A DNA stretch of 64,000 nt from an uncultured Phycisphaeraceae bacterium (GTDB lineage Bacteria; Planctomycetota; B15-G4; JADJEK01): assembly GCA_964649825.1 (NCBI GenBank), contig CAZYQW010000147.1, positions 15,217-79,216 of the forward strand, given 5' to 3'. Of this stretch, positions 1 to 62,157 are shown one piece after another (position 1 is the stretch's first letter; every line of letters begins with the position of its first letter). Below the pieces are notes generated by a model. It worked only from the letters and a program-made list of their open reading frames with translations, searched no databases and had not been told where the DNA came from. Position numbers and translations under genes: made by a program.

Positions 1-11
1 GCGGCCAGCGG

Positions 12-911
12 ATGACGCCGGAGCTGCACCTCTGTCATGACGTCGAGGTGGATCGCTGCGCCGTCTGCATCCCGAAGATGTGGGGCGGTTGGTTCGGTCG
101 CGGGCGCGACGGCGAAGCGTTCGAGCCGGCCGCCTCCCGCGCCAAGGACGTCGCTCAGTTGAACGAGTACCACGAGTGGATCCGCGCCGTGTTGTCGCGC
201 TGCGATCGGCTGGTCGCGCCGTCCGAATCGTCGCGCGAGATCTACGTGCGCTACGGCGTCCCCGTCGAGCGGATCACGGTCGTGGAGAACGGCCTCGATC
301 ACGCCCCGTTCCGCTCGATCGAGAGGACGACGTCCGCGTCGTTCCGCTTCGGCTTCATCGGCTCGGTCCTGCCGACGAAGGGCGTCCACGTGCTGATCGA
401 GGCGTTCGAGCGCCTCGGCCGACCGAACGCGCGGCTCGACGTCCACGGCGAACTCCTCGGCTGGCACGAGGTGCAGGACTACGGCGATCGAATCCGCGCT
501 CAGGCCGAGCGCGCCGGCGGGCGGATCACGCTGCACGGCCGCTACGAGGCGGCGGAGCTCCCCTCGATCCTCGGGCGCCTCGACGCGCTCGTCGTACCGT
601 CGCTCTGGTTCGAGGCGTTCTGTCTGACGTTGCGCGAGGGGTTTCTCGCCGGCGTTCCCGTGATCGCGTCGCGCCTTGGCGCGATGGCGGAAGGGATCGA
701 TGACGAGCGGACCGGGCTTCTGTTCGAGCCGGGCAACGCCGCCGACCTGGCCGCCAAGATGGCGCGCGTGATGGACGACGGGGCGTTGCGGGCGCGGCTC
801 GTCGGATCGACGAAGCGCGTGCGGACGATCGAGGAGAACGCGGCGGCGCTTCTCACGCTCTACGTTGGCGGGGCGGGCGGAAGGCCGGAGGGGCGGAGCG
901 AGCCGGACTGA
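12..911 (+). CDS. Glycosyltransferase family 4 (GT-B), C-terminal part; probably 5'-truncated by the window edge
   Basis: Motifs FGFIGSVLPTKGVHVLIEAF, DALVVPSLWFEAFCLTLREGFLAGVPVIAS and TGLLFEPGN. The frame stays open to the window start. Confidence 0.9.
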   Translation: MTPELHLCHDVEVDRCAVCIPKMWGGWFGRGRDGEAFEPAASRAKDVAQLNEYHEWIRAVLSRCDRLVAPSESSREIYVRYGVPVERITVVENGLDHAPFRSIERTTSASFRFGFIGSVLPTKGVHVLIEAFERLGRPNARLDVHGELLGWHEVQDYGDRIRAQAERAGGRITLHGRYEAAELPSILGRLDALVVPSLWFEAFCLTLREGFLAGVPVIASRLGAMAEGIDDERTGLLFEPGNAADLAAKMARVMDDGALRARLVGSTKRVRTIEENAAALLTLYVGGAGGRPEGRSEPD

Positions 912-2329
912 GTCGGAGTGATCTCGAGCTCGTACGCGCCGGACGGGATCCCACCCGGACGGCGGCCCTCGGCCAGCGATTCGATGAGCGCCATCGGCTC
1001 GCAGGAGAACCCGACCGTCTGCGTCGACTCGGTCATGGCCACTCGAAGGGTCGCGATCTCGAACCGCACGATCTCGTCGAGGTGATCGACGTCGAGCTCC
1101 AGGTCGCAGAGGTAGAGCGCGAACGAAGTCGCCTCGTCCGACGCGAACAGCTCGGGCTCCACGGTGCGGCAGAACCGATCGATCAGGTCGCGATACGCGG
1201 CGTCGCCGAGCGCGATGCGAAGCAACCGGCAGGTCAGGGTGAGCGCGTCGACGATCATTCCAGCGCGGGCGTGCCAGACGAGGTCGCGCAGGATCGAGAC
1301 CCCGTCGTCGAGTGCCAGTTCCCAGCCGAGCGAGCACTCGGGAGTCCGGCCGATCGCGAGCGTCGCGAGCGCGTCCTCCCACTCGGCCGGGGTCGGAAGG
1401 GGCGCGTCGTTTGCGACCGGCTTCGTCGTCGAGCCGGCCGGCCGCGGCCGGCGCTCGCGTCGCGCCCGGCCGCCGCGGGAACGCGAGTCGATCGCGAGGG
1501 AGAGCCGCTCGAGCTCGTCGCGGACCCCGTCGATCCCGAGTCGCGGGACGTAGTCGCCGAGCAGCTCGAACACGACGGCGCGGAGGTTCGGGAGGGCGGG
1601 GACGAGCTCGGTCAGCAGCTCGAGCACCTCGTCGGGCGTCGCCGCCGAGTGCGCGTCGAGCCAGTAGCCGTCCCGCTCGACGCCGCCCGCGACGTGGATC
1701 TCGACCACGCGATCGAGCGGAACGTCGGCGAGGAACTCGCGCACCGGCTGGCGGCCGTTTCTCTCGTTGGCGTACAGGTTGTGGAGGTCGAGCAGGATCC
1801 CGCAGTCCGCGCGCGTCGCGACGGCGGCGGCAAAGGCGCCGTCCGGCATCTCGCCGGGCCGCGGCTTCAAGTAATCGACCCCCGTCTCGAACAGGAACGG
1901 GACCGGGAGCCGGCAGGTCAGCGTCCGGATCGATCGGACCGCGGCGTCGACGCCGGCCGGGCTCGGGAAGGGCGGCAGCAGGAATCCGGCGAACCGTTCG
2001 CCATGCGGCCCGCGCGCCCGATTGAACGCCAGGTGCTCGCTGCACCACGGCGCATCGAGTGCGCGGACCACCTCGACGAGCGGGGCGACCTGGCGGGGGT
2101 CGGGAGGGATCGTCCCGCCGACCGGGAACCCGACGCCGTGGACGATCTTCGTCTGCGGCAGCGACCGGATCCGTTCGAGGTGGTCGCGGCTCATCGCGTA
2201 GGGTCGTTCCGCGCCGGCCACGTGACGCCAGAGCGTCTGCGGCTCGACCTCCACGTACGAGACGAGATCCTCGCTGGACCGGAGCAGCGGTTCCAGTCCA
2301 GGCGAGTACAGCAGTCCGAGTCCCGGCAC
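860..2329 (-). CDS. DUF692 / MNIO (multinuclear non-heme iron oxidative enzyme) with a C-terminal helical partner-like extension
   Basis: HGVG, SEHL, DLHNLYAN, EIHVAGG, LDAHS and VFE match the DUF692 metal-ligand pattern. About 170 aa follow the barrel. Start moved to GTG 2329, which has GGGAG upstream and lies just after the stop of the 2344-2577 gene. Confidence 0.9.
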   Translation of the reverse strand: MPGLGLLYSPGLEPLLRSSEDLVSYVEVEPQTLWRHVAGAERPYAMSRDHLERIRSLPQTKIVHGVGFPVGGTIPPDPRQVAPLVEVVRALDAPWCSEHLAFNRARGPHGERFAGFLLPPFPSPAGVDAAVRSIRTLTCRLPVPFLFETGVDYLKPRPGEMPDGAFAAAVATRADCGILLDLHNLYANERNGRQPVREFLADVPLDRVVEIHVAGGVERDGYWLDAHSAATPDEVLELLTELVPALPNLRAVVFELLGDYVPRLGIDGVRDELERLSLAIDSRSRGGRARRERRPRPAGSTTKPVANDAPLPTPAEWEDALATLAIGRTPECSLGWELALDDGVSILRDLVWHARAGMIVDALTLTCRLLRIALGDAAYRDLIDRFCRTVEPELFASDEATSFALYLCDLELDVDHLDEIVRFEIATLRVAMTESTQTVGFSCEPMALIESLAEGRRPGGIPSGAYELEITPTQSGSLRPSGLPPAPPT

Positions 2330-2343
2330 CGCGCTCGCTCCCG

Positions 2344-2577
2344 TCAGAAGCCGGGGCCGAAGTCGGCGACGACGTTCAGCTTCTCGTCGACGCGGAACCG
2401 GTTCTCGAGCCCGAACCGGATGTCGAATCCGGAGTGGCACTCGGAGCAGCCGAGGCGCCCGAGAATGTCCTTCGTCACCTTCTGCATCGCGGTCAGGTCG
2501 AAGGCCACCTGCGCCGGGATGCTCACCTTCACCGCCTTCAGGGTTCCGATCTCGGCTTGGGTCTTGTCGAAATGCAT
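2344..2577 (-). CDS. 77-aa peptide with a CxxC(H)SG motif; putative MNIO substrate/precursor
   Basis: MHFDKTQAEIGTLKAVKVSIPAQVAFDLTAMQKVTKDILGRLGCSECHSGFDIRFGLENRFRVDEKLNVVADFGPGF. GGAG lies 8 nt before ATG 2577, and the stop is 14 nt before the MNIO start. Confidence 0.8.
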   Translation of the reverse strand: MHFDKTQAEIGTLKAVKVSIPAQVAFDLTAMQKVTKDILGRLGCSECHSGFDIRFGLENRFRVDEKLNVVADFGPGF

Positions 2578-2791
2578 CGCTCGATCTCCAACGTTTCTTC
2601 TCGCACGGGCCTCCGACTCTTTCGGAGGCCGGACTGCTCCACGCCGAATCCGGGCCCGCGGCGTCAAGAAAAAGAGGTTTCTGTCGTGCCGGCGGTTTGG
2701 ATCACCCCCGACGCGGGTCGAGAGAGCGTCACACTCGGGGGCGACGTTCCGTTCTCCTCTCCAGTGGCCCGTGACCCAGCCGGAGACCTCG

Positions 2792-5323
2792 ATGAACCTC
2801 GCGCTTCGCACCACCTCGTTCCTTCTTGCCGCGTCCACCGTCGCGGGGGCCGCGCCCGCGGTGCGGCCCGCGCTGCCTCCCGCGTTCGTCCAGAACCGAG
2901 GGCAGCTCGACGAAGCCGTCGAGTTCGTGGCCCGCCACGGCGGGATCGTCACGTTCGTGACCCGGGAGGGGTTTCGCCTGCGGGCCCATGCTCCCGACGG
3001 AACGCGTGGCGCCGCGGTCTTCTTCCGCTTCGAGGGCGCGGCCGGCGACGCCCGCGTGACCGGACTCGACCGGTTCGAAGCGCCGTTCCACTTCCTCGTC
3101 GGTGAGCCGTCCGAGTGGCGCACCCACGTCGCCGGCTTTCGGTCGGTCCGACTCGAGGAGCTCTATCCCGGCGTCGACGTCGAACTGCATCATCGCGGTG
3201 GGCGGGTCGCGTACGACCTGCGGCTCGCCCGCGGGGCGGACCTGTCCCGCGTCAGCATGCGGTGCGACGGCGTGGACGCGCTCGAGATCGACGAGGGCGG
3301 CGCGCTCGTCCTGAGGACGTCGATCGGTGATCTCCGGCAGACGCCGCCGGTCGCGTTCGTCACGGACGACGACGGGAGGCGGCGCGCGGTCGAGTGCCGG
3401 TTCGTGCCCCTTGGCGACTCGCGCTACGGCTTCACCGCGGACGGCTGGACGGGCGACCGACCCCTCGTCATCGATCCCGGCATCGAGCTCTCGACCTACC
3501 TCGGAGGGAACCCGGCCGACGTCACCGCGACGGGCATCGGCGACGGGGCGGCGGCCGTCGCGGTCGACGCCGATCGGAACGTCTACGTCACCGGCTCCAC
3601 CGACGACGCCGACTTCCCGACCACGCCGGGAGCGTTCGACGTGACGTTCGAAGGGAGCCTCGGCTTCATCAAGGGCGACGTCTTCGTCGCCTCCTTCGAC
3701 CCGACCGGAAAAGTCCTCCGGTTCGCGACGTTCCTCGGCGGGAACTTCGGCGAGCAGGCGACCGGGCTCGCGCTCGACGCGAGCGGCAACGTCTACGTCA
3801 GCGGCACCACGGACGGCGGGACGTTCCCCTCCACCCACGAGTTCGGCACGTCGATGGTCTTCGGTCTCTCGACGTTCACGTCGTTCGTCGCGCGCCTCGA
3901 CCCGCTCGGCACGACCCTCGGATGGGCCGCGCTGATCCACGACTGCTCGCTGAGCGCGATCGCGCTCGACGGCGTCGGAGGGCTCTACGCGGTCGGCTCC
4001 GCCGCGTTCCAGGCCGGCGTCACCGGTTTCCCGGCGACGCCGGGCGCCTATTCGACGACCCACTCCGGGGGCTTCTGGGACCAGTGCGCGCTGAAGCTGA
4101 CCACCGACGGTCAGACCCTCGTGTACGCGACGTTCCTGGGCGGAACGAACTACGACGTCGGCCGGGCGATCGCCGCCGATCCGTCGGGCGTCGCGTTCAT
4201 CGGCGGCGACACGTTCTCCGCCGCGTTCCCGGTGTCGAGCTCCGCGTTCGACACGACGCGCAGCACCTTCCTCGTCGAGGGGACCATCTCGCGCCTCGAC
4301 CCGACCGGGTCGCTGCTCGTGGCGTCCACGCTGCTCGGGGCGGGGAACAACTCAGGCGTGCGGTCCCTCGCGATCGGCTCTCAAGGCGAGCTGGTGGTGG
4401 CCGGCCAGGTGTGGGACTTCGACGGGCTCACGGCGCCGGTGCCGTTCTTCGTCACCCCCGGCGCGTTCGATACTGTGTACGACGGAGACACGGACGGGTT
4501 CTGCGCCAAGCTCGACCTCGGCCTCGCCACGCTGCTTGCGTCGACGTACGTCGGCGGCCCGGGCGACGACGGCGCGACAGGGATGGTGCTCGACTCGTTC
4601 GATCGCCCGTACGTGGCGGGATGGACGAGTTCGACGACGTTCCCGGTCACGGCCGACGCGGTCGACGCGACCTTCAACCAGCACCCCACTCTGCCGAGCG
4701 GCTTCGATGTCTCGTTGGTGCAGCTCGAGAACGACCTGAGCGCGCTCCGCTACGGCACGTACTTCGGGGGCGTGTTCGACGACTCGGTTCGCGACCTGGT
4801 CGTGACGCCGGAGGGCGTCGTCTACATCGCCGGGATGACGCGGTCGCCGGACCTGCCGACGTCGCCCGGGGCGTACGACTCGGTCTGGAGCGGGAACCAG
4901 GACGCGTTCGTGGCGAAGATCGAGTTCTGCCCGGGATCGCTCCTGCGCGAGTACGGCACAGGCTGTCCGGGTACGTCGTCGATCACGCCGGCCCTCCACG
5001 GGGACGGTTGTCCGTCGCCCGACTCGACCATCGTGCTGCGAGTCTTCGGCGCCCTCGGCGGGGCCACCGCGTTCGTCCTGGTCGGACCGTCCGCCGGCGC
5101 TCTTCCGCTGAACCCGGGCTGCATCCTGGCGCTCGGCGGGGTGTCGATCCTGTTCGCGGTGCCGCTCGCGACGGGTGGACCCGGCGCGGGCGAGCAGGTG
5201 TTGACGGTGAAGATGCCGCCGATGTTCCCGATCGCCGACGCGTACGTTCAGGCGGTGATCCCCGACCCGGGCGCCCCGTTCGGCTTCGCGGCGACGAACG
5301 GGCTGCGGGTGCACCTGCAGTAG
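2792..5323 (+). CDS. Secreted SBBP-repeat (beta-propeller) surface protein with a conserved C-terminal domain
   Basis: Signal peptide MNLALRTTSFLLAASTVAGA; N-terminal FVQNRGQ...LVIDP domain; repeated (S/A)TYLGG...VAVDADRNVYVTGST..DFPTTPGAFD units. Start set at ATG 2792 because the upstream part of the ORF is the antisense shadow of the MNIO operon. Confidence 0.85.
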   Translation: MNLALRTTSFLLAASTVAGAAPAVRPALPPAFVQNRGQLDEAVEFVARHGGIVTFVTREGFRLRAHAPDGTRGAAVFFRFEGAAGDARVTGLDRFEAPFHFLVGEPSEWRTHVAGFRSVRLEELYPGVDVELHHRGGRVAYDLRLARGADLSRVSMRCDGVDALEIDEGGALVLRTSIGDLRQTPPVAFVTDDDGRRRAVECRFVPLGDSRYGFTADGWTGDRPLVIDPGIELSTYLGGNPADVTATGIGDGAAAVAVDADRNVYVTGSTDDADFPTTPGAFDVTFEGSLGFIKGDVFVASFDPTGKVLRFATFLGGNFGEQATGLALDASGNVYVSGTTDGGTFPSTHEFGTSMVFGLSTFTSFVARLDPLGTTLGWAALIHDCSLSAIALDGVGGLYAVGSAAFQAGVTGFPATPGAYSTTHSGGFWDQCALKLTTDGQTLVYATFLGGTNYDVGRAIAADPSGVAFIGGDTFSAAFPVSSSAFDTTRSTFLVEGTISRLDPTGSLLVASTLLGAGNNSGVRSLAIGSQGELVVAGQVWDFDGLTAPVPFFVTPGAFDTVYDGDTDGFCAKLDLGLATLLASTYVGGPGDDGATGMVLDSFDRPYVAGWTSSTTFPVTADAVDATFNQHPTLPSGFDVSLVQLENDLSALRYGTYFGGVFDDSVRDLVVTPEGVVYIAGMTRSPDLPTSPGAYDSVWSGNQDAFVAKIEFCPGSLLREYGTGCPGTSSITPALHGDGCPSPDSTIVLRVFGALGGATAFVLVGPSAGALPLNPGCILALGGVSILFAVPLATGGPGAGEQVLTVKMPPMFPIADAYVQAVIPDPGAPFGFAATNGLRVHLQ

Positions 5324-5360
5324 CGCCATCCGATACGGGCGGGGCGCGGGCGGATCGACG

Positions 5361-6773
5361 TCAGGCTTCGGCGAGCGCGCGGGCCGCGCCGCGGCCGGCC
5401 GCGAACCCGCTCGACCACGCCCACTGGAAGTTGAATCCGCCGAGCCGTCCGGTGCAGTGGGCGACCTCGCCGCAGAAATGCAGGCCGCGCCGGCGGCGGC
5501 TCTCGAGCGTAGCGCGGTCGAGGTCGGCGAGGAGCACGCCGCCGCGCGTCACCTCGGCCTTGTCGAAGCCGTCGACGCCCGAGAGCTCGAGATCCGCGTA
5601 CGCGAGCGCGACGTGGACGCGACGCCACTCCGACGTGGAGAGGTGCGCCGCGGACTTGTCGCCCTCGACGCCGGACCTCGCGACGAGCGCGGCGGCGAGC
5701 GAGCGCGGCAGGCGCGCGGCAAGGACGTTCAGCAGGGCTCGCCGGTCCGCGCCGTCGATGGCGCGTGCGTCGGCGACGAACGCGTCGAGGCCGATCGGCC
5801 GCGGCGTGTCGATCGCGCGCAAGCACGCGCCGGGCGGTTTCGCGAGCGAATGGAACCGCGCCCAGGGGGAGTCGGGGGTGGCGAGCGACCAGAAGTCGGC
5901 GCGGAGCCGCACCGCGTCGCCGCGCGCCAACGCGAGCGCGCACGCGCCGCTGACGTCGAGCGCGGCGGGGCCGGTCGCGCCGCGGTGGGTGACCAGCAGG
6001 CTCCCCGCCGCCCGCGCCAGCGGCCGAAACCTCGATCCCCCGATCTGCTCCGGCGGAGCCTCGGCCGGCGCGAGCGTGAGCAGCGCCGGCACGGTGACGC
6101 CGGCCAGCCCGGCGAGCGGTGACGCGCTGGTCAGGAAGAGCGGCGTGAGCGCTGGAAGCACCTCGGAGAGCGCGTGGCCCGATCGAGCCGCGACCTCGAA
6201 CCCGAACCCCCGCGATCCGGTACGCGGAAGGCTCTTGCCGCCGGTCGCGATCACGACCCGGCGCGCGTGAACGGCGCCGCCGGCCGCGGTCGAGGCGACG
6301 AAGCCGTTGCCGCCGGCATCGATCGCCGTGACCTCGACGCCGGGCTCGAGCGTCGCGCCGGCGCGCTCGACCGCATCCACGAGGATCCGCAGCACGTCGC
6401 GCGCGCGGTCCGACGTCGGGAACAGCTTGCCGAGCGGTTCGGCGTAGAGCGGACATCCGCCTTGCTCGAGGAACGTGCGTATGCCGGACGGCGGAAAGCC
6501 GCGCAGCACGCTGCGCGCGACCTTGGGGAGGTCGGTGTCGAAGTCGGTCTCGTCGACGACCTCGTTGGTGACGTTGCACCGCCCGCCCCCCGACACGAGG
6601 ATCTTGAGCCCGACCCGCGCCGACGCGTCGATCACTCGCACGCGGGGCGCGTCCGCCGGCGGACTGGCGGGCGCGCCCCGTCCGTCGACGGCCCCGCGCG
6701 CGGCGATCGCGGCGAACAGCCCGGCCGCCCCCGCGCCGACGATCAGGAGGTCCGTCGCGTCGGGCCGGCTCAT
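5361..6773 (-). CDS. HI0933/YhiN (BaiN-like) NAD(P)/FAD-dependent oxidoreductase
   Basis: IVGAGAAG, KILVSGGGRCNVTN, AEVTRGGV and FCGEVAHCTGRLGGFNFQWAWSSG. ATG 6773 overlaps the MFS stop (ATGA). Confidence 0.9.
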   Translation of the reverse strand: MSRPDATDLLIVGAGAAGLFAAIAARGAVDGRGAPASPPADAPRVRVIDASARVGLKILVSGGGRCNVTNEVVDETDFDTDLPKVARSVLRGFPPSGIRTFLEQGGCPLYAEPLGKLFPTSDRARDVLRILVDAVERAGATLEPGVEVTAIDAGGNGFVASTAAGGAVHARRVVIATGGKSLPRTGSRGFGFEVAARSGHALSEVLPALTPLFLTSASPLAGLAGVTVPALLTLAPAEAPPEQIGGSRFRPLARAAGSLLVTHRGATGPAALDVSGACALALARGDAVRLRADFWSLATPDSPWARFHSLAKPPGACLRAIDTPRPIGLDAFVADARAIDGADRRALLNVLAARLPRSLAAALVARSGVEGDKSAAHLSTSEWRRVHVALAYADLELSGVDGFDKAEVTRGGVLLADLDRATLESRRRRGLHFCGEVAHCTGRLGGFNFQWAWSSGFAAGRGAARALAEA

Positions 6774-8137
6774 CGCTTCCCGATCGTCGCATCGTCGTCG
6801 GGCCCCGGGGACGGCGCGATCGAAGGTTCGACGCCCTCGTCGACCGGCCGGTGCGACACGCCGCCGCTCGGGCGGAACCCGAGCATCCGGAGCGCGAACG
6901 GACGCCGGGAGACCGGCGCGCCGGCGTCGACGTCCGCGAGCAGGCGCGGCGCGGCGACCGCGGCGACCGATCGCAGGGCGAGGCTGAGCGCGAAGACGGC
7001 CGTGAAGCCGTCCCCGACCGAGAGGAACAGGAGACCCCCGACCGCCGACCCGACCAACTGGCCGCCGCCGTTGACGAAGCTCTGGAGCGCGAACAGGCGG
7101 GGCCGGGACGGCGTCGGCGCGTGGCCGAGGAGCAGACCCAGGATGCCGAGCTCGTGCGCGGCCCACGCCACGCCGGAGAACGCCTGCACCGCGAGGACGC
7201 CGGGCAGTCCTTGGATGAAGAGCCACGGCAGCGGGATGACCGCGACCAGGACCGTCGCGAACCGGTAGACGAGCGCAGGGCTCTTGGCGTCGACGGCGCG
7301 GCCGAACACTCGCAGCGCGAGCACCTTGAACGCGACCTGCATCGCGCTCGCGGCCATGAAGCTCCGGTAGTCGAACTGGAGCACGGTCAGCATGTACGGG
7401 GTGAAGAACGGCGAGCCGAGGTAGACCGAGAACGTCAGCAGGCCGGAGAGGCCCAGGAGCCGGCGGGCGGCCGGCGTCAGCGGCTCGAGGCGCGGGACGG
7501 GCGACGCGCGGGGGCGCGCAGGAGCGGTGGGTTCGGGCGAGACGAGGAGGAGGACGGCCGACACCATCCGCGCGCCGGCCGCGCCGAAGAAGAGGATCGC
7601 GAACCCACGCGTGGCCCCCGCTCCGAAGCCGTCCAGGAGGAAGCCGCCGGCGATGATGGCGCCGAACGTCACTCCGTGGACGACGCCGGCACGGCGCGAG
7701 AAGTACGCTCCGCGCGACTCGACCGGCACCACGTCGCCGTACCAGGACGACCAGAGGACGCCGCTCATCTGCCCGCAGGTCTGGTGGAGAGCCGCCGCCG
7801 CGATGATCATCCACGCCGACGCGCGTCCCTGCCACTCGGCGGTGGCGAGGAGGGTGAACACCGTCGCCTGGGCGAGCACGAGCAAGACGATCGGCGTCCG
7901 CCGCCGCCGCGCGCGGCGCATCAAGTCGACGCTCGCGGTCGCGGCCGCTCCGCCGAGCGCGAGCGGGAGGCCGACGAGAAGGCCGATCTCGAGGGAGGAC
8001 GCGTGGTGGGCGACCGCCGCGGCGACGAGGTACGCCTCGCCGAGTCCGACCATCACCGCGAAGAACGCTCCCTCGACGATCGCGAGGCGGAGCGTCCGAT
8101 CGATCAACGCGCGCGGAAGGGTCGCCGATTCGGTCAA
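6770..8137 (-). CDS. MFS transporter
   Basis: About 12 hydrophobic segments, with N-terminal AIVEGAFFAVMVG, WSSWYGDVVP..SRGAYFSRR and FGRAVD. Start (TTG 8137) is uncertain. Confidence 0.8.
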   Translation of the reverse strand: MTESATLPRALIDRTLRLAIVEGAFFAVMVGLGEAYLVAAAVAHHASSLEIGLLVGLPLALGGAAATASVDLMRRARRRRTPIVLLVLAQATVFTLLATAEWQGRASAWMIIAAAALHQTCGQMSGVLWSSWYGDVVPVESRGAYFSRRAGVVHGVTFGAIIAGGFLLDGFGAGATRGFAILFFGAAGARMVSAVLLLVSPEPTAPARPRASPVPRLEPLTPAARRLLGLSGLLTFSVYLGSPFFTPYMLTVLQFDYRSFMAASAMQVAFKVLALRVFGRAVDAKSPALVYRFATVLVAVIPLPWLFIQGLPGVLAVQAFSGVAWAAHELGILGLLLGHAPTPSRPRLFALQSFVNGGGQLVGSAVGGLLFLSVGDGFTAVFALSLALRSVAAVAAPRLLADVDAGAPVSRRPFALRMLGFRPSGGVSHRPVDEGVEPSIAPSPGPDDDATIGKR

Positions 8138-8337
8138 GCCGCAGCGCCTCCGCGGCGGACGTTCGCCTTCTCGTCGTTCACGTACGTCGCTCCTTCCGGC
8201 ATCGAGCTCGGACGCCGCGCCGGCGGTTCCGTCGCCGCGATGAACCTGCCGCCGGTCCGACTCGAGCCGATCGGCGCCCCGTGATAGGGGGCGGACCCCC
8301 GGCTTCGCAAGCACGTGCACCCTGGTAGTCTGAGGCG

Positions 8338-9264
8338 ATGTCGGTCGCGACCCCGAAAAACGCCGTTCCGGCGCCCGTCACCATCGTCGTTCCGACCCGG
8401 AACGGCGGGCCGCTCTTCCGTCGGGTGATCGCGCGCATCGCCGCGCTCGACCCTCCTGCCGCGCGGGTCATCGTGATCGACTCCGGCTCGAGCGACGGCA
8501 CCGCCGACCACGCGCGGGAGGCCGGCGCCGACGTTCTCCCCATCGACCCCGCGACGTTCGATCACGGCGCCACCCGGATGATCGGGGTCGAGCGCGCCGG
8601 CACGCCGCTCGTGGCGTTCCTCTCGCAGGACGCGCTGCCCGACGCCGACTACCTCGGCCCCCTCGTCGCCGCGTTCGACGACCCGCGGGTGGCGGGGGCG
8701 ACGGCGCGCATCCTGCCGCAGGAGGACGCGTCGCCGCTCGCGCGCCGGTCCGTGCTCGCGTCGCCCATGGCGGGGTCCGAGCCCCGCACGATCGAGGTCG
8801 ACCCGGCCCGGTTCGCGGCGCTCGACGGGCGCGCCCGCCGTGCCTTCACGCAGTTCGACAACGTCGCTTCGATGGCGCGGCGCGACCTGCTCCTCCGCCA
8901 CCCGTTTCCGCGCACGATGATGGGGGAGGACGCGGCGTTCGCGGCGGCGGCGCTCGCGGCCGGGCACCGGTTGCGGTTCGAGCCCGGCTCGGTCGTCCGG
9001 CACTCGCACGAGTACGGCCCGATCTCGGCGTTTCGCCGCTACCGCGACGACGCCCGTTTCTTGAGGCGTTCGTTCGGCGAGGTCGTCCGGCCTACGCCAT
9101 GGGACGTGGTCCGCGGGTTCGCCTACGAGGTCCGCGAGGACGCGCGCGCGGTGCGGGGAACGAAGCTCGCCGCGGCGCTCAAGGCACTGGCGAAGTCGCC
9201 GTTCGTGCGCGCGGGCCAGATCGCCGGGCAGTGGTGGGGCGGTCGCGCGGGGGCGCGGCCGTGA
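8338..9264 (+). CDS. Glycosyltransferase family 2 (rhamnosyltransferase-like)
   Basis: IVVPTRNG, VIDSGSSDGT, FDHGATR, FLSQDALP, GED and VRHSH. Confidence 0.9.
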   Translation: MSVATPKNAVPAPVTIVVPTRNGGPLFRRVIARIAALDPPAARVIVIDSGSSDGTADHAREAGADVLPIDPATFDHGATRMIGVERAGTPLVAFLSQDALPDADYLGPLVAAFDDPRVAGATARILPQEDASPLARRSVLASPMAGSEPRTIEVDPARFAALDGRARRAFTQFDNVASMARRDLLLRHPFPRTMMGEDAAFAAAALAAGHRLRFEPGSVVRHSHEYGPISAFRRYRDDARFLRRSFGEVVRPTPWDVVRGFAYEVREDARAVRGTKLAAALKALAKSPFVRAGQIAGQWWGGRAGARP

Positions 9265-11972
9265 AGGTCTCGATCGTCATCCCGACCTGGAACGGAGACG
9301 ACGTGGTGGCCGAGTGCCTGCGCGGCGTCTTCGAGCAAGAGGTCGACTTCGAGGTCGAGGTCCTCGTCATCGACTCCTCTTCGAGCGACCGGACTCCCGA
9401 TCTCGCACGCCGGTTCCCGATCCGCGTCCACTCGATCCCGCAGCGCGAGTTCAGCCACGGCGACACGCGCAACCTGGGCGCGCGGATGACGGACGGCGAC
9501 CTGATCGTGTTCCTGGTGCAGGACGCGTATCCGGAGCGACGCGACTGGCTCTGCACCCTGGTCGGGAACTTCGTCGATCCTCTCGTCGCGGGGGCGTTCT
9601 CGCGCGTCGTGCCGCGCCGGAACGCGGGCCCGCTCGTCCGGCGCGGCGTGCAGGGCGACCTCAACTTCGGCGAGGAACGGCTCGAGCGGCAGGTGGCCGA
9701 CCAGGACGAGCTCGCGCGGCTCGATCCTCTGACGAAGCGGATCTTCGCCAACTTCAACGACGTCGCCTCGTGCCTGCGCCGCGACGTCTGGCGGCGCCTG
9801 CCGTTCCCGCGGGTCTCGTTCGGCGAGGACCTGCTTTGGGCGCTCGGCGCGCTCCAGGCCGGATACAAGATCGTCTTCGACCCGGACGCTCCGGTCGTCC
9901 ACTCGCACGAGTACGACCCGAAGACGTTGCGGGCGCGGACCCGGATCGACGGCTGGGTGAACCGCGCGTACCTCGACCGGGTGTGCGTCGCGCGGAGACG
10001 CGACGCGTGGATCATGACGAAGCGCGTGGCGCTCGAGGATCGGCGCTACGTGCGCGGGCTCGACCTGTCTCGCGGCGAACGGCGGCGGCTCGGGTTCCTG
10101 TCGTACTACTACCACTGGCTCGAGTTCCTCGGCGCGTATGAGGGCGGACGGACCAAGGACCGCCTCGTCGCGCCGGTGATCTCCCCCGACCGCCCGTTGA
10201 GGATCCTGTTCGTCGTCCACGGCTTTCCGCCCGAGAGCGTGGCGGGCACCGAGGTGCTCACGCTCGCGCTGGCGCAGGCACACCGCCGCCGGGGCCACCA
10301 CGTCGCGGTCTTCTTCCGCAGCGGCGATCCGGCCGCGGAGGACCACTCGTTGGCCGCGGGCGAGATCGACGGCATGACGACGTACCGCGTCGTGAACCAG
10401 CTCGACTACCGCAGCATCCGCGACACGGTGGCGAACCCGCCGATCGAGGCCCGCTTCCGCGAGGTGCTCGCGCGCGAGCGTCCGGACGTCGTCCACTTCG
10501 AGCACATGATCCACCTGTCGGTCGCGCTGCCGCGGATCTGCCGAGAGGCGGGCGTGGCCGCCGTCGTCACGCTCAACGACTTCTGGTTCCGGTGCGCGCG
10601 CGTCCAGCTCGTCAGGCCGAACCAGAAGCTCTGCAGCGGCCCGCCGCCGATCCTCGGCTGCGCGGCGTGCATCTCGAACGTCCCGGCGCTGGTCGGTCCG
10701 CTGCGCGCGGTCTCGCGTCCGCTGCGCCGGTTGTGCGCGGTGATCGCGCGGCACGCGGCGCCGCTCTTGCCGGCGAAGCCGAAGCACGTGCTGAAGCAGG
10801 CGTCGAACCTCGTCTGGCTGGCGCTGCGGCCGGAGACGATGAACGAGGCGCTGGGCCAGGCGCACTTCATCATCGCGCCGTCGCCGTTCCTGAAGGAGAA
10901 GATGGTGGAGGCGGGGGTGCCGCCCGAACGGATCGTCGTCTCCGACTACGGCATGGAGAATGGATGGCTCGCGCGCTACGAACGCCGCCCTGCCCCCGGC
11001 CGCGTCCGTTTCGGGTTCGTCGGCTCGCTCGTCTGGTACAAGGGGCTCGAGGTGTTGGCGCGCGCGTTCGAACGCATCGACGATCCCCGCGCCGAGCTTC
11101 ACGTCCACGGCGACGATGACGGCCGCCCGGAGTTCGCGGACGTGCGCCGCCGCGCCGAGGCGATCGTGCGGAGGGATGGCCTCCTCTTCCACGGCCGCTA
11201 CGAGCCGGGCCGCATCGGCGAAGTGTTGAGCGGGATCGACGTCCTCGTCGTTCCGTCGGTCTGGTACGAGAACTCCCCGCTCGCGATCCACGAGGCGTTC
11301 CTCGCCCGGATCCCGGTGATCGTGTCGGACCTCGGCGGCATGCGGAACCTCGTCGTGGAAGGGCGGGGAGGAACGCGGTTCCGCGCCGGGGACGACGCCG
11401 ACCTCGCCCGGGTCATGGGCCGCTTCCTCGAGGACGCGACCCTCGCGGACCGCGTCGCCGCCGCGGCTCCCCCGGTGAAGACGACCGACGAGAACGCGGC
11501 CGAGATGGAGGTCAAGTATCGCCAGGCGATCGGGCTCGTCGCCGGCGCGGCCTGCATCACCGCCGTCGACCTGAGGCGGATCGTCGACGAGCGGGGCCTG
11601 GTCGAGGCCGGTCAGGACGGGTCGGTGCGGATCGGTCCGTCGCGGCCCGGCGGTTCCTCGGTCGAATACGCGGTCGACGCGGACGGCGCGATGGACGTCG
11701 AGCTCCGGATCGTGCTGGCGTGCGACCCGGCCGACGCGGCGGCGGAGCAAGGCGTGCAAGTGACGCTGAACGGACGGCGCGTCGCGACGCTGGCCCCGTC
11801 GCGGCCGGCGAGCTCGGGTGCATCGATCCCGGCCCTCGCCCCGGTCTCGCTCCACCGTGGCCGGAATCGTCTCGTCTTGTCGACGTGGAGCCCGAACGGT
11901 GCGGACGCGGCGCTCGCGCGCGTTCGAGCGATCTCGGTCCTTCGAACGCCGGCCGCGCGTCGCCCTGATTGA
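9261..11972 (+). CDS. GT2-GT4 fusion glycosyltransferase with a C-terminal beta-rich domain
   Basis: GT2 part: VSIVIPTWNG, IDSSSSDRT, LVQDAYP. GT4 part: ILFVVHGFPP..VAGTEV, FGFVGSLVWYKG, VPSVWYENSPL. GTG 9261 overlaps the upstream stop (GTGA). Confidence 0.9.
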   Translation: MKVSIVIPTWNGDDVVAECLRGVFEQEVDFEVEVLVIDSSSSDRTPDLARRFPIRVHSIPQREFSHGDTRNLGARMTDGDLIVFLVQDAYPERRDWLCTLVGNFVDPLVAGAFSRVVPRRNAGPLVRRGVQGDLNFGEERLERQVADQDELARLDPLTKRIFANFNDVASCLRRDVWRRLPFPRVSFGEDLLWALGALQAGYKIVFDPDAPVVHSHEYDPKTLRARTRIDGWVNRAYLDRVCVARRRDAWIMTKRVALEDRRYVRGLDLSRGERRRLGFLSYYYHWLEFLGAYEGGRTKDRLVAPVISPDRPLRILFVVHGFPPESVAGTEVLTLALAQAHRRRGHHVAVFFRSGDPAAEDHSLAAGEIDGMTTYRVVNQLDYRSIRDTVANPPIEARFREVLARERPDVVHFEHMIHLSVALPRICREAGVAAVVTLNDFWFRCARVQLVRPNQKLCSGPPPILGCAACISNVPALVGPLRAVSRPLRRLCAVIARHAAPLLPAKPKHVLKQASNLVWLALRPETMNEALGQAHFIIAPSPFLKEKMVEAGVPPERIVVSDYGMENGWLARYERRPAPGRVRFGFVGSLVWYKGLEVLARAFERIDDPRAELHVHGDDDGRPEFADVRRRAEAIVRRDGLLFHGRYEPGRIGEVLSGIDVLVVPSVWYENSPLAIHEAFLARIPVIVSDLGGMRNLVVEGRGGTRFRAGDDADLARVMGRFLEDATLADRVAAAAPPVKTTDENAAEMEVKYRQAIGLVAGAACITAVDLRRIVDERGLVEAGQDGSVRIGPSRPGGSSVEYAVDADGAMDVELRIVLACDPADAAAEQGVQVTLNGRRVATLAPSRPASSGASIPALAPVSLHRGRNRLVLSTWSPNGADAALARVRAISVLRTPAARRPD

Positions 11973-36908: not shown

Positions 36909-37637
36909 TCAGCGGTTGATCGCGAGCTCGCGTTCGAGCCGTGAGCGGTACGCCACCGACTCGTCGCGCCGGCCGAGGAACTCGAACGAGAGCGCGAGCT
37001 GGTAGAGGGCCTCGCAGCGCGCGCTGCGCGTCGCCTCCTTGAGACGGAGCACCTCGTGCGCGGCCTCCGTCACTTCGGACCACTCGCCGCGTCGCGTCCG
37101 CTGGATGGTGCGGATCATGCGCACATCGTGGGCCATCGTCGTCGGGGACACGATCGTGGGTTGCGGCGTCGGCGAAAGACCCGACGTCAGCGCCGAGCCG
37201 TAGGCCATGAGGCCGACGCCGATCAGGTGGTGGATCGGATCGCGGGACATGGCCGGAGGATCCTCTTCGATCGCCTCATCCACGTCGACCACGCCGACCG
37301 TCTCGTCTACCGCGACCGCGACTTCGCCGGCACTCTCGGATCGATGGGCGCGATGGTCGCCATGGTCGAGGGGCGACGGGTCGAAGCGGAACGAGGCGCC
37401 GACGGCGATCAGGAAGAACGCCGCCGCCGCGTACGCCAAGGGCGCGGGTCGGAGGACTCGCCAACCGCGCCGGCGCCGTGACGGCATGGCGGGAGTCACC
37501 GTCGACCACGCGTCCTTCATCCAGCGCAAGGTGGCCTGGGTTCGCGGATCGGCCTCGTCCAGCCGGTCGCCCCGTTCGGGAGGCTCGACGGCCCGCCATG
37601 CCTCTCGGAGGCGCTCGATGGCATCTCGATCGTTCAT
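36909..37637 (-). CDS. Putative anti-sigma factor (single TM, C-terminal TPR-like helices)
   Basis: Translationally coupled (ATGA) to the ECF sigma; TM LAYAAAAFFLIAVGASF; C-terminal EALYQLALSFEFLGRRDESVAY. Confidence 0.55.
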   Translation of the reverse strand: MNDRDAIERLREAWRAVEPPERGDRLDEADPRTQATLRWMKDAWSTVTPAMPSRRRRGWRVLRPAPLAYAAAAFFLIAVGASFRFDPSPLDHGDHRAHRSESAGEVAVAVDETVGVVDVDEAIEEDPPAMSRDPIHHLIGVGLMAYGSALTSGLSPTPQPTIVSPTTMAHDVRMIRTIQRTRRGEWSEVTEAAHEVLRLKEATRSARCEALYQLALSFEFLGRRDESVAYRSRLERELAINR

Positions 37638-38224
37638 GATGAAAGACCTCCACCTCCTCCGGCGCGGGCGACCTCGGGAATCCGGTGGCCGAGGATCGTG
37701 CGCAGCCGCCGCCGCGCCAACGAGAGGAGCGACCGCACCGTCCCCTCGGTGATCCCCAGGACCTCCGCGACATCGGGGCTCTCCGCCCCTTCCAAGTCGC
37801 GCAACACGAACACTTCGCGCTCCCGATCCGTCAACTTCGCCAGGCTCTCGCGCAGAATCGTGTGCACCTCGGCCGCGGCGGCGACGTCGTGGGGGTCGGG
37901 CAGGAGATCGAGGTCGGTCACCGCGGCCGACTCCTCGGCCCGTCTCCGGGTCGCCCGACGCCGCAACCGGTCGCGGCAGAGGTTGGCCGCGACGGTGTTG
38001 CGCCAGGTGGTGAACCGACGCGACGGATCGAATGCCGCCAACCGATCGATCAACTGGAGCATGGCGTCCTGCGCCACGTCCTCGGCTTCCGCCTCGTCGG
38101 CCAGGAAGCCGAAGCAGAGGCGGAAGACGCGGGGATGCTCACGTCGATAGAACTCGTCCTGGGCGGCGGAGTCGCCGGCCAGGACGCGCTCCAGCAACGG
38201 ATCGTGGCTGAGGTCCGGTGTCAT
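37634..38224 (-). CDS. ECF (sigma-70 group 4) RNA polymerase sigma factor
   Basis: Region 2 EAEDVAQDAML...FTTWRNTVAANLCRD; region 4 LTDREREVFVLRDLEGAESPDVAEVLGITEGTVRSLLSLARRRL. Start ATG 38224. Confidence 0.9.
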   Translation of the reverse strand: MTPDLSHDPLLERVLAGDSAAQDEFYRREHPRVFRLCFGFLADEAEAEDVAQDAMLQLIDRLAAFDPSRRFTTWRNTVAANLCRDRLRRRATRRRAEESAAVTDLDLLPDPHDVAAAAEVHTILRESLAKLTDREREVFVLRDLEGAESPDVAEVLGITEGTVRSLLSLARRRLRTILGHRIPEVARAGGGGGLSS

Positions 38225-38313
38225 GTCTCTGGGGAGAGTACGGCGGTCGACCGCCGGGCGCTGAAGGGAAAATCGAGCCCTGGCGTTCGACGAACGAGCG
38301 GAACCGACCCACG

Positions 38314-38339
38314 GGAACGTGGGATTGCTTATTCTCGTC
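38314..38339 (+). promoter_or_regulatory. Possible ECF-type promoter (GGAAC-N17-CGTC)
   Basis: GGAAC at 38314-38318 and CGTC at 38336-38339, about 105 nt upstream of the 38446 gene and next to an ECF sigma gene. Pattern match only. Confidence 0.3.
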
Positions 38340-38445
38340 GACTCTCTTCGATCCGCGTTACGAATCTCGTTTCGCTGCGTCCCTCGTGCACGCGATCGGT
38401 CCCGCTCACGACATTCGAGCCGTACGCGCACGCAAAGGAGGAGTC

Positions 38446-39750
38446 ATGCGACGACGTCCCTGGTCACTCGTTTCCGCCGGTGGAGCACTCGTGCTCCTCT
38501 CGTCGATCCTCGCCGGCCGCACGCCGGCCGCGGTGATCGTCGTCGACGCGGCGGGGGGAGGAGCGTACACCTCGATCCAGCCGGCGGTGGACGCGGCGGT
38601 GGACGGCGACATCCTGTTCGTCCGCGCCGGCACCTACGCGGGCTTCTCGATCGTCGACAAGTCCCTCGTCGTGTCGATCGACCCGCCGGTCGGTTTCGAC
38701 CAAGTGAAGGTCGACGGCGTGACCGAGGTCCGCTCGCTCTCGCCGGGCAAGACCGTCCAGCTCAGCTTCCTCACCGGCAAGAGCCTGCCGTATGCACCGA
38801 CGTCCCACGCGCTCGTCGTCGACAACTGCCAGGGGCACGTGCGTGTCCAGGCGTGCCGGTTCACGGGAATCCCGGGAAGCAGCTCCTCGAACGGCGCAGA
38901 CGGGACGGCGGGGGCTCGAGTGATCAACTCCGCCGACGTGCTCTTCGTGGGTTGCCAGCTCTTCGGTGGCTATGCCGCCAACGTCCCGCCCTGCGACGGG
39001 ACTGGCGGGACCGCGTTCGGCGGGCGGGGCGGCGACGGGCTGCACGCGACCGGCTCGTCGGTGGTCGTGTACGACTCGCTCGTGCGCGGGGGCAAGGGCG
39101 GCGAGGGCTGCTTCGTGGGAGGGTTCGGCGGCGACGGAGGGCGGCTGGAGACGACGACGCTCTTCACGTCGAACACCAAGTGGGAGGGAGGCGGCGGCCA
39201 GTGGGCGATCGAGTACATCGGCTGCGGCTTCGTCGGCGGCGACGGCGGCGACGGTCTCCACGTGGACGCGGGCTCGACCGCGCGCGTACTCGACTGCGAC
39301 CTCATCGCCGGTGCGCCCGGGCCGCCCGCCCTGTGCAACGTCGCGGGCAACCCGGGGCAGACGTTCGCGGGCGCGGGAACCGTGACGCTGCTCGGCGGCG
39401 TTGCGCGTGCGTTCAACACGGCCAAGTCGGCGCACGAGGGCCAATCGATCCTGCTGCAGTTCGCCGGGATCGCGGGCGACACGGCGTTCCTGTTCCTCTC
39501 GACGTCGACCGGCGCCCAGGCCATAGATCCCTGGAGCGGAGTGTTCCTGCTTGGCTCTCCGTTGATCGGCCCGCTTCTGGCCGGGGTCGTTCCCGCGGGA
39601 GGCTACTTCGAGTTCAACGTCACCGTGCCGCAGCTCCCGACCGGTCTGCTCGGCGCCGGCGTGTACGAGCAGGCGATCTTCGTCGACGCCGTCGGCAACG
39701 TCAGGATCGGCAGCCCGGGCTACCTGACGATCTTCGACGCGTCGCTCTGA
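38446..39750 (+). CDS. Secreted protein with pectin-lyase-like/beta-helix N-terminus and Gly-rich repeats
   Basis: AAGGAGGAG RBS; signal peptide; VIVVDAAGGGAYTSIQPAVDAAVDGDILFVRAGTY; repeated GG.GGDGL...S motifs. Confidence 0.7.
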   Translation: MRRRPWSLVSAGGALVLLSSILAGRTPAAVIVVDAAGGGAYTSIQPAVDAAVDGDILFVRAGTYAGFSIVDKSLVVSIDPPVGFDQVKVDGVTEVRSLSPGKTVQLSFLTGKSLPYAPTSHALVVDNCQGHVRVQACRFTGIPGSSSSNGADGTAGARVINSADVLFVGCQLFGGYAANVPPCDGTGGTAFGGRGGDGLHATGSSVVVYDSLVRGGKGGEGCFVGGFGGDGGRLETTTLFTSNTKWEGGGGQWAIEYIGCGFVGGDGGDGLHVDAGSTARVLDCDLIAGAPGPPALCNVAGNPGQTFAGAGTVTLLGGVARAFNTAKSAHEGQSILLQFAGIAGDTAFLFLSTSTGAQAIDPWSGVFLLGSPLIGPLLAGVVPAGGYFEFNVTVPQLPTGLLGAGVYEQAIFVDAVGNVRIGSPGYLTIFDASL

Positions 39751-42800: not shown

Positions 42801-42966
42801 AGACCTCGAGCCGATCGTCGGGGGTATTCACGGCCAACAGCGTCGACCCGTCCGGGGTCAGGTCGAGCGGGCTGACGTGCGGTGTCTCCCAGTTCACGAA
42901 CGACTGGGACGACGCGAACGAGGCCGAGACGCAGAAGAGCAACGCGACGAGTGCGAGCGTACGCAA
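39832..42966 (-). CDS. Secreted YncE-like beta-propeller + di-heme cytochrome c (CCP/MauG-like) protein with a conserved C-terminal domain
   Basis: AAGGAGG RBS before TTG 42966; signal peptide; propeller repeats (TPDGSTLLAVNTPD, VWVVNHLSDSVSVVD); two CxxCH motifs (CASCH, CSTCH); WRGDR, PPNPYR and KIPHLRN. Confidence 0.8.
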   Translation of the reverse strand: MRTLALVALLFCVSASFASSQSFVNWETPHVSPLDLTPDGSTLLAVNTPDDRLEVFDVVGPKLVHRASIAVGVEPVSVRARGNDEAWVVNHLSDSVSVVDLATNRVIATLATADEPADVVFAGSLGRAFVTCSQVNRVQVFDPSQLAAAPVELTLLGEDPRALAVSPDGSTVYAAIFESGNDTTILGGGGTQAGAFPPNVVSHPSGPYGGQNPPPNQGVAFSPPIQPALPAPPKVGLIVRRNGQDNWIDDNQGDWTSVVSGANAALSGRPVGWLLNDHDVAEVNADTLAIRYVTALMNVNMALAVHPLSGDVIVVGTDATNEIRFEPNVNGTFVRVKAARVQAQTLSVLGDVDLNDHLTYATSTAPQSDRDKSIGDPRGICWNPSGTRGFVTGMGSNNVVAIDATGARAVSGATIEVGAGPTGLRHHPALPYVYVLNRFSASISTIDATIDLEVAETSFFDPTPDAIRAGRPFLYDTHRTSGLGQVSCASCHVDARMDRLAWDLGDPQGTMKDESGQNLGANVPGLNSGFQDWHPMKGPMTTQTLQDIIGKEPHHWRGDRDGIEEFNPAFTNLLGDDAPLTAGEMQAFEDFLATIHFPPNPYRNFDNSLPTNVDLSGHASAGKFSAKGTPLPNGNAQAGLARFRPPFLLDAGGLACSTCHTLPTGLGTNHQLVGGQFQPFPTGPMGEKHLALVSVDPSTNVTMKIPHLRNMHEKVGFDTSAKRNLAGFGFTHDGGVDTLAQFISEPFFVVSNEQMLADLVAFMLAFSGSDLPYGGPFLEPPAVASQDTHAAVGRQTTMADGANPAPGQLALIDSMVALADAGAAGLVVKGTIGGLPRGAVYAGSGQFQTDRASETLTTAQVKLLPTPGSPITWTVVADGSEVRLGVDRDEDGAFDQDEQDAGSDPADALSVPGCGGATAYGDGCGGSLGIVPALSLSGCASANGMVTFAIDHGLGGSNAFLVFGLLPGATPIGGGCNLLVAPLLAPTFGPIPLAAGGPGDGGFSLTTTLPPGTPVGTLTTQALVVDAGSALGLSTTNGLEVTLQ

Positions 42967-59814: not shown

Positions 59815-60111
59815 CCCGAGCCGGTCGTCGCGCATGCCGCGCGAATCGATGCTCGCGCCCACCGCTTCGCGGCGTCGCCCGTCGTTCATCCTCTCGCGCG
59901 GACCGTACGCGCGAGATAGGCTGCGCCAGCGACTTGCGACGAACGCGAGGATGCCGCTGTCGTACCGCGTGGTTCGCGCCCCGGCTTGAGCAACTCTCAA
60001 GAAAAGCCTTGCGCGAGGCCGACAGGTTCATCATCCAGGACTATGGTGGGACCGATGGCGTGGGGCGCCGAATGCGTGGCGCCTACGGGTTCCCCGCAGG
60101 AGGCTCGCAGA

Positions 60112-62154
<2,043 letters not shown>

Positions 62155-62157
62155 ACC

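Follow-up and report, generated by a model that had tools for sequence, protein, structure and literature searches.

A large, previously uncatalogued C-terminal domain family on secreted-type proteins of Planctomycetota, a candidate sorting or surface-anchoring module

Here we describe a family of C-terminal domains that came to light through two otherwise unrelated proteins encoded in a 64,000-nucleotide stretch of DNA (64 kb, hereafter the window) from an uncultured Phycisphaeraceae bacterium. Protein A is built on SBBP beta-propeller repeats and protein B on a beta-propeller and a di-haem domain, and the tails of both are copies of a real, very large and previously uncatalogued domain family that is found essentially only in Planctomycetota. 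We put at about even chances the proposal, made by analogy, that this C-terminal domain (CTD) acts after Sec export as a module for sorting or for anchoring at the cell surface, analogous in function but not homologous to the CTD of the type IX secretion system (T9SS). The genes and domains on which the analysis rests are as follows, with domain limits taken from the envelopes of a hidden Markov model (HMM) of 153 sequences.

2792-5323, plus strand: gene of protein A (843 aa plus stop), with a signal peptide, DUF7948, SBBP beta-propeller repeats and the new CTD
2792-2851, plus strand: predicted Sec signal peptide of protein A, MNLALRTTSFLLAASTVAGA followed by AP, read from the sequence by a hydrophobic N-terminus heuristic
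4904-5320, plus strand: CTD copy A, which runs to the final codon (stop codon 5321-5323)
39832-42966, minus strand: gene of protein B, with a signal peptide, a YncE-like/lactonase-type beta-propeller, a CCP_MauG-like di-haem domain and the CTD, from the open reading frame (ORF) and its Pfam and NCBIfam matches
42913-42966, minus strand: predicted signal peptide of protein B, (M)RTLALVALLFCVSASFA followed by SSQ, from reading the sequence
39835-40251, minus strand: CTD copy B, which runs to the final codon (stop codon 39832-39834)

DUF7948 and SBBP are the Pfam matches of protein A, which has a 100% identical counterpart of 843 aa among database proteins (P0005). The start of protein B is most likely TTG 42966, which is preferred over the longest-ORF start, GTG 43035, because a Shine-Dalgarno sequence, GGAGAAGGAGG, lies 6-8 nt upstream. 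None of the Pfam or NCBIfam matches of proteins A and B extends over either tail, and the signal peptides of both proteins were read from the sequence or called by heuristic, not by a dedicated predictor. In a composition-adjusted BLASTP comparison of the last ~133 and 135 residues, the two tails share 52 of 130 positions (40% identity, 8 gaps, E=2e-24), which bears out the original prediction, made from the DNA alone, of aligned tails on unrelated bodies. Their pairwise alignment contains 51 invariant columns, including YGxGCxG, PLAxGGPGxG and the terminal TNGLxVxLQ. Where three conserved cysteines had been claimed, four are kept in both tails (C3, C15, C30 and C67 in the numbering of tail A), the fourth lying upstream of the proposed domain start; that start (4949, and 40212 on the minus strand) was placed 8-15 residues too far downstream relative to the HMM envelopes. 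When an HMM of the two tails was run against the six-frame stop-to-stop ORFs of the window, copies A and B were the only strong matches (E<1e-66), and with the 153-sequence HMM they scored E=4.6e-37 (HMM positions 9-139) and E=4.3e-43 (positions 7-139), respectively, each with 0 residues left to the stop. The same six-frame scan, together with a Pfam survey, found some secreted-looking proteins of the window that carry no CTD, and this selective occurrence fits a pathway-specific tag.

The domain is by no means limited to these two proteins. An exhaustive HMMER search with a six-sequence profile against 1.84 billion representative proteins (clusters at 50% identity) matched 6,710 clusters at E<=1e-3, 1,524 at E<=1e-10 and 13 at E<=1e-30. 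A word-indexed protein search was too insensitive for the CTD, returning four short proteins from the two tails, with the CTD C-terminal in all four, and 24 proteins from 35 CTDs. The position of the domain was inspected for the best ~150 of the 6,710 matches: among the 153 proteins retrieved it ends 0 aa (116), 1 aa (33), 2 aa (3) or 3 aa (1) from the C-terminus, and none carries two copies. A test independent of gene calling, in which the 153-sequence HMM was run against six-frame translations of 48 fetched loci and the window (658 kb), recovered 70 CTD copies; of these, 68 are complete, and each of the 68 reaches to within 0-2 residues of a stop codon. Twenty-three of the six-frame copies are extras in the locus flanks, beyond the seeds that drew the loci, and tandem arrays of CTD genes are present among the loci scanned. 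On homologues of the protein A body, 21 of 21 copies are terminal. The question raised at the outset, whether the domain always sits at the C-terminus, thus has a uniform answer for the copies inspected, as 242 of 242 are single and terminal (0-3 aa from the C-terminus) and none is internal.

Taxonomic distribution was examined by a combined pattern and tblastn scan of one genome per GTDB species, using a consensus-like alignment of six sequences as the query, which yielded 47 CTD loci in 26 assemblies. By their labels, 41 of the 47 belong to Planctomycetota (including Phycisphaera-, Planctomycetaceae- and Brocadiaceae-labelled metagenome-assembled genomes, MAGs), five to an unclassified 'bacterium' and one to Chloroflexota, in agreement with the prediction of a lineage-specific domain. 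Several MAGs hold 3-8 seed loci each, and these counts per genome are lower bounds since the pattern, YG[ATS]GCAGSG, samples a single subfamily. The Chloroflexota-labelled locus (L011, DYJB01000251.1, Candidatus Aquidulcis) is a 2.8-kb contig of 69% G+C with two CTD-type genes; its DNA is 78-81% identical to that of the Planctomycetota loci L017 and L002, and it was probably misbinned. Mean likeness of CTDs is higher within a MAG (identity 0.45) than between MAGs (0.36), a difference confounded by recent paralogy and by the choice of seeds and hence not used as evidence of co-evolution. A scan of species-representative genome contigs with the two-tail alignment gave 38 pattern sites, of which 0 were confirmed, indicating that the genome of the window is not among the species representatives; the window sequence itself is present in one soil metagenome run.

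The CTD is ~130-135 residues long, and its consensus can be written as xxCxGxxxxYGxGCxGSGGFVPxLxxxGCPxxG...GLGGSxAxLxxG...PxGxGCxLLVxP...PLxGxGPGxG...TxQAFVxDPGxPxGFxxTNGxxxxx. Among 223 distinct copies, the following columns of the CTD HMM stand out by their conservation:

G17: 96%
C20: 94%
G22: 98%
P28: 97%
G60: 97%
C72: 96%
Q116: 99%
D121: 99%

C20 and C72 nearly always occur together, and C9 is paired with C35 in 103 of 106 cases. From this co-occurrence and the AlphaFold models we infer two disulfides, C20-C72 in the core and C9-C35, a pattern that would be in keeping with an extracytoplasmic location. The terminal TNGLxVxLQ, proposed as a conserved signature, holds between copies A and B; family-wide it relaxes to [ST]N[GA] leading into an alternating hydrophobic strand, with a variable last residue (P in 33%, Q in 19%). 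The end of the domain is a predicted beta-strand, and neither a transmembrane helix nor a basic (Arg/Lys) cluster is found there in the full-length members or the AlphaFold model. Structure prediction, which had been suggested as a check, gave a mean confidence (pLDDT) of 78.9 from six sequences and of 92.8 from 35 sequences (pTM 0.84), the latter a confident model of a ten-strand, all-beta sandwich.

In general, comparisons with catalogued families returned nothing that would identify this fold. For 35 diverse CTDs searched at E<=10, Pfam-A gave 0 matches, including to carbohydrate-binding modules (CBMs), PKD, Big, FlgD_ig and CarboxypepD_reg, and NCBIfam 20.0 gave two chance matches only; against PDB sequences there was a single chance match (E=1). 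Foldseek searches of the PDB with both AlphaFold models gave no match at E<=1e-3, the best being to the ML domains MD-1, MD-2 and NPC2, complement MG domains, LILR Ig domains, the C-domain of Wzt and lytic polysaccharide monooxygenases (LPMOs), at template-modelling (TM) scores of 0.35-0.5, and a Foldseek search of viral structures (BFVD) returned nothing more specific than generic beta-sandwiches. Full-text literature searches turned up no description of the CTD. Across Pfam, NCBIfam, PDB and Foldseek, then, no known carbohydrate-binding or structural domain was matched, and as modelled the CTD is a generic beta-sandwich that has no identifiable relative in the databases compared. The ML domains are of similar size (~130-150 aa) and are likewise disulfide-bonded, secreted beta-sandwiches, which makes them the best weak structural neighbours of the CTD model; their Foldseek scores (E 2e-3 to 2e-2, TM 0.35-0.44, root-mean-square deviation 6-8 A, 8-13% identity) and the lack of a Pfam match do not suffice to argue for a shared fold or for lipid binding. 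Weak Foldseek matches to ester-bond adhesin domains and the invariant Q and D residues prompted us to consider an intramolecular ester or isopeptide bond, which was set aside as there is no invariant Thr, Lys or His partner.

The proteins that carry the CTD are diverse. A Pfam scan of 94 full-length members assigned 63 Pfam families to their bodies, which are mostly beta-propellers: FG-GAP types (17-23 members each), DUF4394 (10) and DUF6923 (7), followed by PQQ_2, WD40, SBBP, GHL10, LDL-receptor class B and TIG. In none of the 94 does a Pfam family cover the tail region. A hydrophobic N-terminus, defined by a 10-residue window with a Kyte-Doolittle value >=2.0 within the first 40 residues, was found in 105 of 128 full-length members (~80%), and no lipobox was seen in these 128. 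By a stricter heuristic applied to the fetched loci, 33 of 53 CTD-bearing ORFs are signal-peptide-like (62%) vs 83 of 274 neighbouring ORFs (30%), an enrichment with an odds ratio of 3.8 (p=1.6e-5). The expected pairing with a signal peptide therefore holds as a strong tendency in heuristic calls, and not for every member.

The most telling comparison is provided by what other lineages carry at the position of the CTD. The protein A body (residues 1-710; window positions 2792-4921) was searched against the protein collection and 119 homologues (P0176-P0294) were analysed. The new CTD ends 21 of the 119, including all four NCBI-labelled Planctomycetota that carry the family (P0191, P0211, P0224 and P0233). 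Elsewhere the same body ends in a T9SS type A sorting domain (P0187, P0194 and P0292; TIGR04183 34-40 bits vs a cut-off of 23, 3 residues from the C-terminus), in MYXO-CTERM (P0181; 21.1 bits vs a cut-off of 20) or in a type I dockerin (P0240, P0241 and P0275), and several other homologues end in Gly-rich/Cys/transmembrane/Arg tails. The occurrence of established sorting and anchoring modules on the same passenger, at the slot filled here by the CTD, is the strongest functional argument available, albeit a circumstantial one. The DUF7948-SBBP body may accordingly be regarded as a 'universal passenger', and lends itself to a catalogue of the surface-sorting tails of individual lineages.

These established modules also served as controls for deciding what the CTD is not. 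The T9SS models TIGR04183 and PF18962 gave no match at E<=0.1 for the full proteins A, B and C or at E<=10 for the 35 CTDs, while the same scans detected the T9SS domain in P0187, P0194 and P0292; no T9SS CTD structure was among the best 50 Foldseek PDB matches of the CTD model, and no T9SS-like gene was among the window genes with Pfam matches. The NCBIfam -CTERM models matched neither the full window proteins nor the 35 CTDs and detected MYXO-CTERM in P0181. The dockerin model (PF00404) likewise gave no Pfam match for the CTDs and was detected in P0240, P0241 and P0275. The CTD therefore belongs to none of the three groups (the T9SS CTD family, the tripartite -CTERM signals and the dockerins), having failed the HMM or architecture tests that define each of them.

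In its overall behaviour the CTD nevertheless resembles the T9SS CTD. Like the latter it is a folded beta-sandwich (as modelled) rather than a linear peptide, strictly C-terminal and single-copy; it occurs on Sec-signal-bearing proteins with very diverse passengers; it is lineage-restricted with many copies per genome; and it takes the same slot on homologues of the protein A body (P0187, P0194 and P0292). The two differ in that the T9SS CTD, a domain of Bacteroidota, has about 70-100 aa and 7 strands, whereas the new CTD has ~130 aa, 10 predicted strands and 2 probable disulfides, and no T9SS is known from Planctomycetota. The tripartite signals (PEP-CTERM/exosortase, LPXTG/sortase, GlyGly-CTERM/rhombosortase and MYXO-CTERM/myxosortase) are also C-terminal and lineage-specific and, as for the CTD, found on unrelated surface proteins with dozens of copies in a genome; MYXO-CTERM further shares a conserved Cys, and replaces the CTD on the body homologue P0181. 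Small C-terminal sorting signals, as surveyed in Haft 2023 (doi 10.1101/2023.06.07.544157), consist of a short motif, a transmembrane helix and an Arg-rich cluster within ~25-40 aa. In contrast, the CTD is predicted to be a soluble folded domain of 130 aa that ends in a beta-strand, with neither a transmembrane helix nor a basic tail. The original prediction had likened the tails to the T9SS CTD or PEP-CTERM: the first analogy stands, and the second is ruled out by the missing helix and basic tail and by a 130-aa folded domain with predicted disulfides.

Taken as a sorting or anchoring module, the CTD would operate in three steps. An N-terminal Sec signal peptide, as read from the sequence, would carry the protein over the cytoplasmic membrane, after which the tail would fold in the oxidising periplasm into the modelled 10-strand beta-sandwich, locked by the C20-C72 and C9-C35 disulfides. 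The folded tail would then display its almost invariant Gly-rich YGxGCxGSGG loop and the invariant Q116 and D121, through which a putative dedicated envelope component might, in analogy to known systems, recognise it and move the passenger across the outer membrane or fix it to the surface; the tail may afterwards be removed. The need for a free C-terminal position would in turn keep the CTD single and terminal on hundreds of unrelated passengers. This proposal is based on the strictly terminal single copy on diverse passengers, the enrichment of signal peptides, the cysteines, the predicted fold and the lineage restriction and expansion, together with the established sorting modules at the same slot of the protein A body homologues. 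As for the earlier suggestion of a targeting signal for an export or attachment pathway, its descriptive part is fully supported and its functional part is argued by analogy only. The bolder form of the proposal, that the CTD marks substrates of a new, Planctomycetota-specific outer-membrane export or surface-attachment pathway that evolved independently as a counterpart of the T9SS, we advance tentatively, as something closer to one chance in three.

Several observations weigh against sorting or anchoring. There is neither sequence likeness nor convincing structural likeness to T9SS CTDs among the comparisons above, and the best weak Foldseek matches are lipid- or glycan-binding beta-sandwiches, which fit a binding module equally well. 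Terminal placement was read from the ~150 best of the 6,710 matches, and the signal-peptide calls are crude heuristics rather than SignalP predictions. No sign of tail cleavage was seen, and the full-length members have no conserved or Pro/Thr-rich linker ahead of the CTD. Ordinary Ig-like/PKD and Big domains also fill the C-terminal slot of body homologues, so that positional equivalence is suggestive and not proof. Finally, no dedicated exporter or transport-like gene flanks the CTD genes of the window, and clustering of the neighbouring ORFs at 48 loci produced no candidate for export or attachment machinery. The only recurrent neighbours were extracytoplasmic function (ECF) sigma factors (7 loci) and Ser/Thr kinases; both are very common in Planctomycetota, and they were regarded as phylum background and not counted as candidate machinery. 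In known sorting systems substrates are typically dispersed, with no linked machinery, and the lack of linkage here consequently neither supports nor refutes a sorting model.

The alternative that survives best, which we hold possible though on the unlikely side, is that the CTD is a non-covalent binding or retention module, with a ligand such as lipopolysaccharide/lipid A, peptidoglycan, a surface glycan or an external compound, which would keep the passenger on the cell surface or on a substrate with no dedicated translocon. Such a role would be consistent with the ligand-binding beta-sandwiches among the weak Foldseek matches (MD-1, MD-2, NPC2; the O-antigen-binding C-domain of Wzt; LPMO/CBM-like folds), with the dockerins and Ig-like domains that fill the same slot in body homologues, and with the invariant Q116/D121 and conserved Gly-rich loop, which by their conservation resemble a binding site. 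Those structural matches (TM 0.35-0.5, E>2e-3) are, however, too weak to establish a shared fold, there is no Pfam CBM or ML match, and CBMs, PKD and Big domains normally vary in position and are often repeated, whereas the CTD is single and 0-3 aa from the C-terminus in 242 of 242 copies.

A dockerin-like role in protein-protein assembly, in which the CTD would connect diverse enzymes and propellers to a shared scaffold or surface layer, appears improbable. Strict C-terminal, single-copy placement on diverse extracellular passengers is indeed a trait of type I dockerins, which replace the CTD in the three protein A body homologues named above, and the many CTD copies per genome could be accommodated by a scaffold. 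But no cohesin-like partner family recurs beside the CTD genes at the 48 loci, and in sequence and predicted fold the two are unrelated, the CTD being an all-beta, disulfide-bonded sandwich by prediction, not EF-hand-like, and carrying no Ca-binding repeat motifs. We consider it slightly less probable still that the CTD is a mere structural cap, folding aid or pro-domain for beta-propellers with no addressing role. The preponderance of propellers among the passengers (FG-GAP, SBBP, WD40, PQQ and YncE-like) and the direct attachment of the CTD to the body, with no flexible linker, are what such a cap would predict; yet the CTD is also found behind GHL10, TIG, the di-haem peroxidase domain and small domains of ~100 aa (P0002-P0004), homologous propeller bodies of other phyla fold without it, and a cap leaves the lineage restriction unexplained. 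That the tails are alike by chance or composition, as might be feared for a domain rich in G, A, L and P in a genome of 68.9% G+C (Gly-, Ala- and Pro-rich sequence), is refuted by the composition-adjusted BLASTP result, the 1,524 clusters at E<=1e-10, the 94-99% invariance of C20, C72, Q116 and D121 and the confident AlphaFold model obtained from the alignment.

The ~6,700 clusters lie outside Pfam and NCBIfam, which implies that thousands of MAG proteins contain a module that is currently unannotated, and a family entry is warranted even should the CTD prove to be just a binding module. Planctomycetota have an unusual cell envelope, and little is understood of how their giant extracellular and surface proteins, of which they have very large repertoires, reach their destination. 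If the CTD is a sorting or anchoring tag, it would define a predicted surface proteome for mostly uncultured bacteria of soil, groundwater, wastewater and marine habitats. Its HMM, combined with partial phylogenetic profiling, would offer a computational route to a new secretion or attachment system, both its translocon and any processing enzyme, and the CTD could serve as a tag for surface display.

Beyond the family as defined here, there are signs of more distant relatives. The remaining candidate of the window lies close to protein B:

38446-39750, plus strand: gene of protein C, with a signal peptide and a Gly-rich body, no Pfam match
39412-39747, plus strand: C-terminal region of protein C, possibly a divergent, Cys-less relative of the CTD core (HMM positions 30-124, 15.4 bits)

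The body of protein C is probably beta-helix-like. A distant tail had been proposed for this protein, and a partial match is indeed seen (E=7e-7 at Z=1; E=5e-4 vs the six-frame ORFs of the window, in the ORF 38218-39750); it is weak, however, and was not recovered at E<=1e-3 in the 658-kb six-frame scan. The tail keeps QAxFVD and has lost YGxGC, all four Cys and TNG. A sister tail, with the motifs FGxSSxGCxG ... AQFxWxGPxSPxPCPP ... SASNALxxTxQP, occupies the C-terminal ~140 aa of P0219, P0243, P0262 and P0267; it has the same overall layout as the CTD, reaches no more than 11-17 bits with the CTD HMM and probably represents a second uncatalogued subfamily. Similarly, the copies of loci L046 and L047 match the CTD HMM only from column ~20 on, and one of these loci holds an array of such genes:

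L047 (JACKHW010000001.1), 1-11065: tandem paralogue array of five consecutive same-strand genes with truncated-profile CTD variants (HMM from column ~20, 31-34 bits)

Judged by such sequence resemblances, a wider CTD superfamily is likely to exist, though this is not demonstrated.

With regard to its other genes, the window is an ordinary piece of chromosome, with genes for glycosyltransferases, an HI0933-like flavoprotein, a major facilitator superfamily transporter, a UvrD helicase, heparinase II/III, a B12-radical SAM enzyme, an ABC/FtsX transporter, a VWA protein, FGE-sulfatase-domain proteins, an ECF sigma factor, YfhO-like proteins, TrpRS, a TIR-nSTAND1 NTPase, methyltransferases and PrkA/DUF444/SpoVR. 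The ECF sigma factor (37634-38431, minus strand) and a probable anti-sigma factor (36909-37637, minus strand, no Pfam match) are divergent from protein C and near protein B. Six further loci likewise have an ECF sigma gene next to a CTD gene, which may reflect only the high density of ECF genes in the phylum.

The divergent neighbour of protein A is a gene for an MNIO-family maturase of ribosomally synthesised and post-translationally modified peptides (860-2440, minus strand; PF05114 MbnB_TglH_ChrH, E=1.3e-38), with NCBIfam ApyH/BufB-like matches below the equivalog cut-offs. Directly upstream of it, a 77-aa ORF (2344-2577, minus strand; MHFDK...GRLGCSECHSGFD...FGPGF) contains a Cys-rich motif and matches no known family; by its sequence and position it could be the precursor peptide of the maturase.

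Elsewhere in the window, 48280-51600 (plus strand) encodes a 1,106-aa protein with an N-terminal TIR domain and an nSTAND1 NTPase (PF13676 and PF20703), an architecture typical of conflict- or defence-type STAND proteins, and a gene trio for PrkA (AAA plus kinase-like), DUF444 (YeaH-like) and a SpoVR-like protein occupies 59986-63998 (plus strand) and runs past the window end. Two membrane proteins of ~950 aa with YfhO-like C-terminal regions (43528-46383, minus strand, and 55636-58554, plus strand) sit among glycosyltransferase, methyltransferase and amine-oxidase/GLF-like genes, a gene content that suggests a surface-glycan locus.

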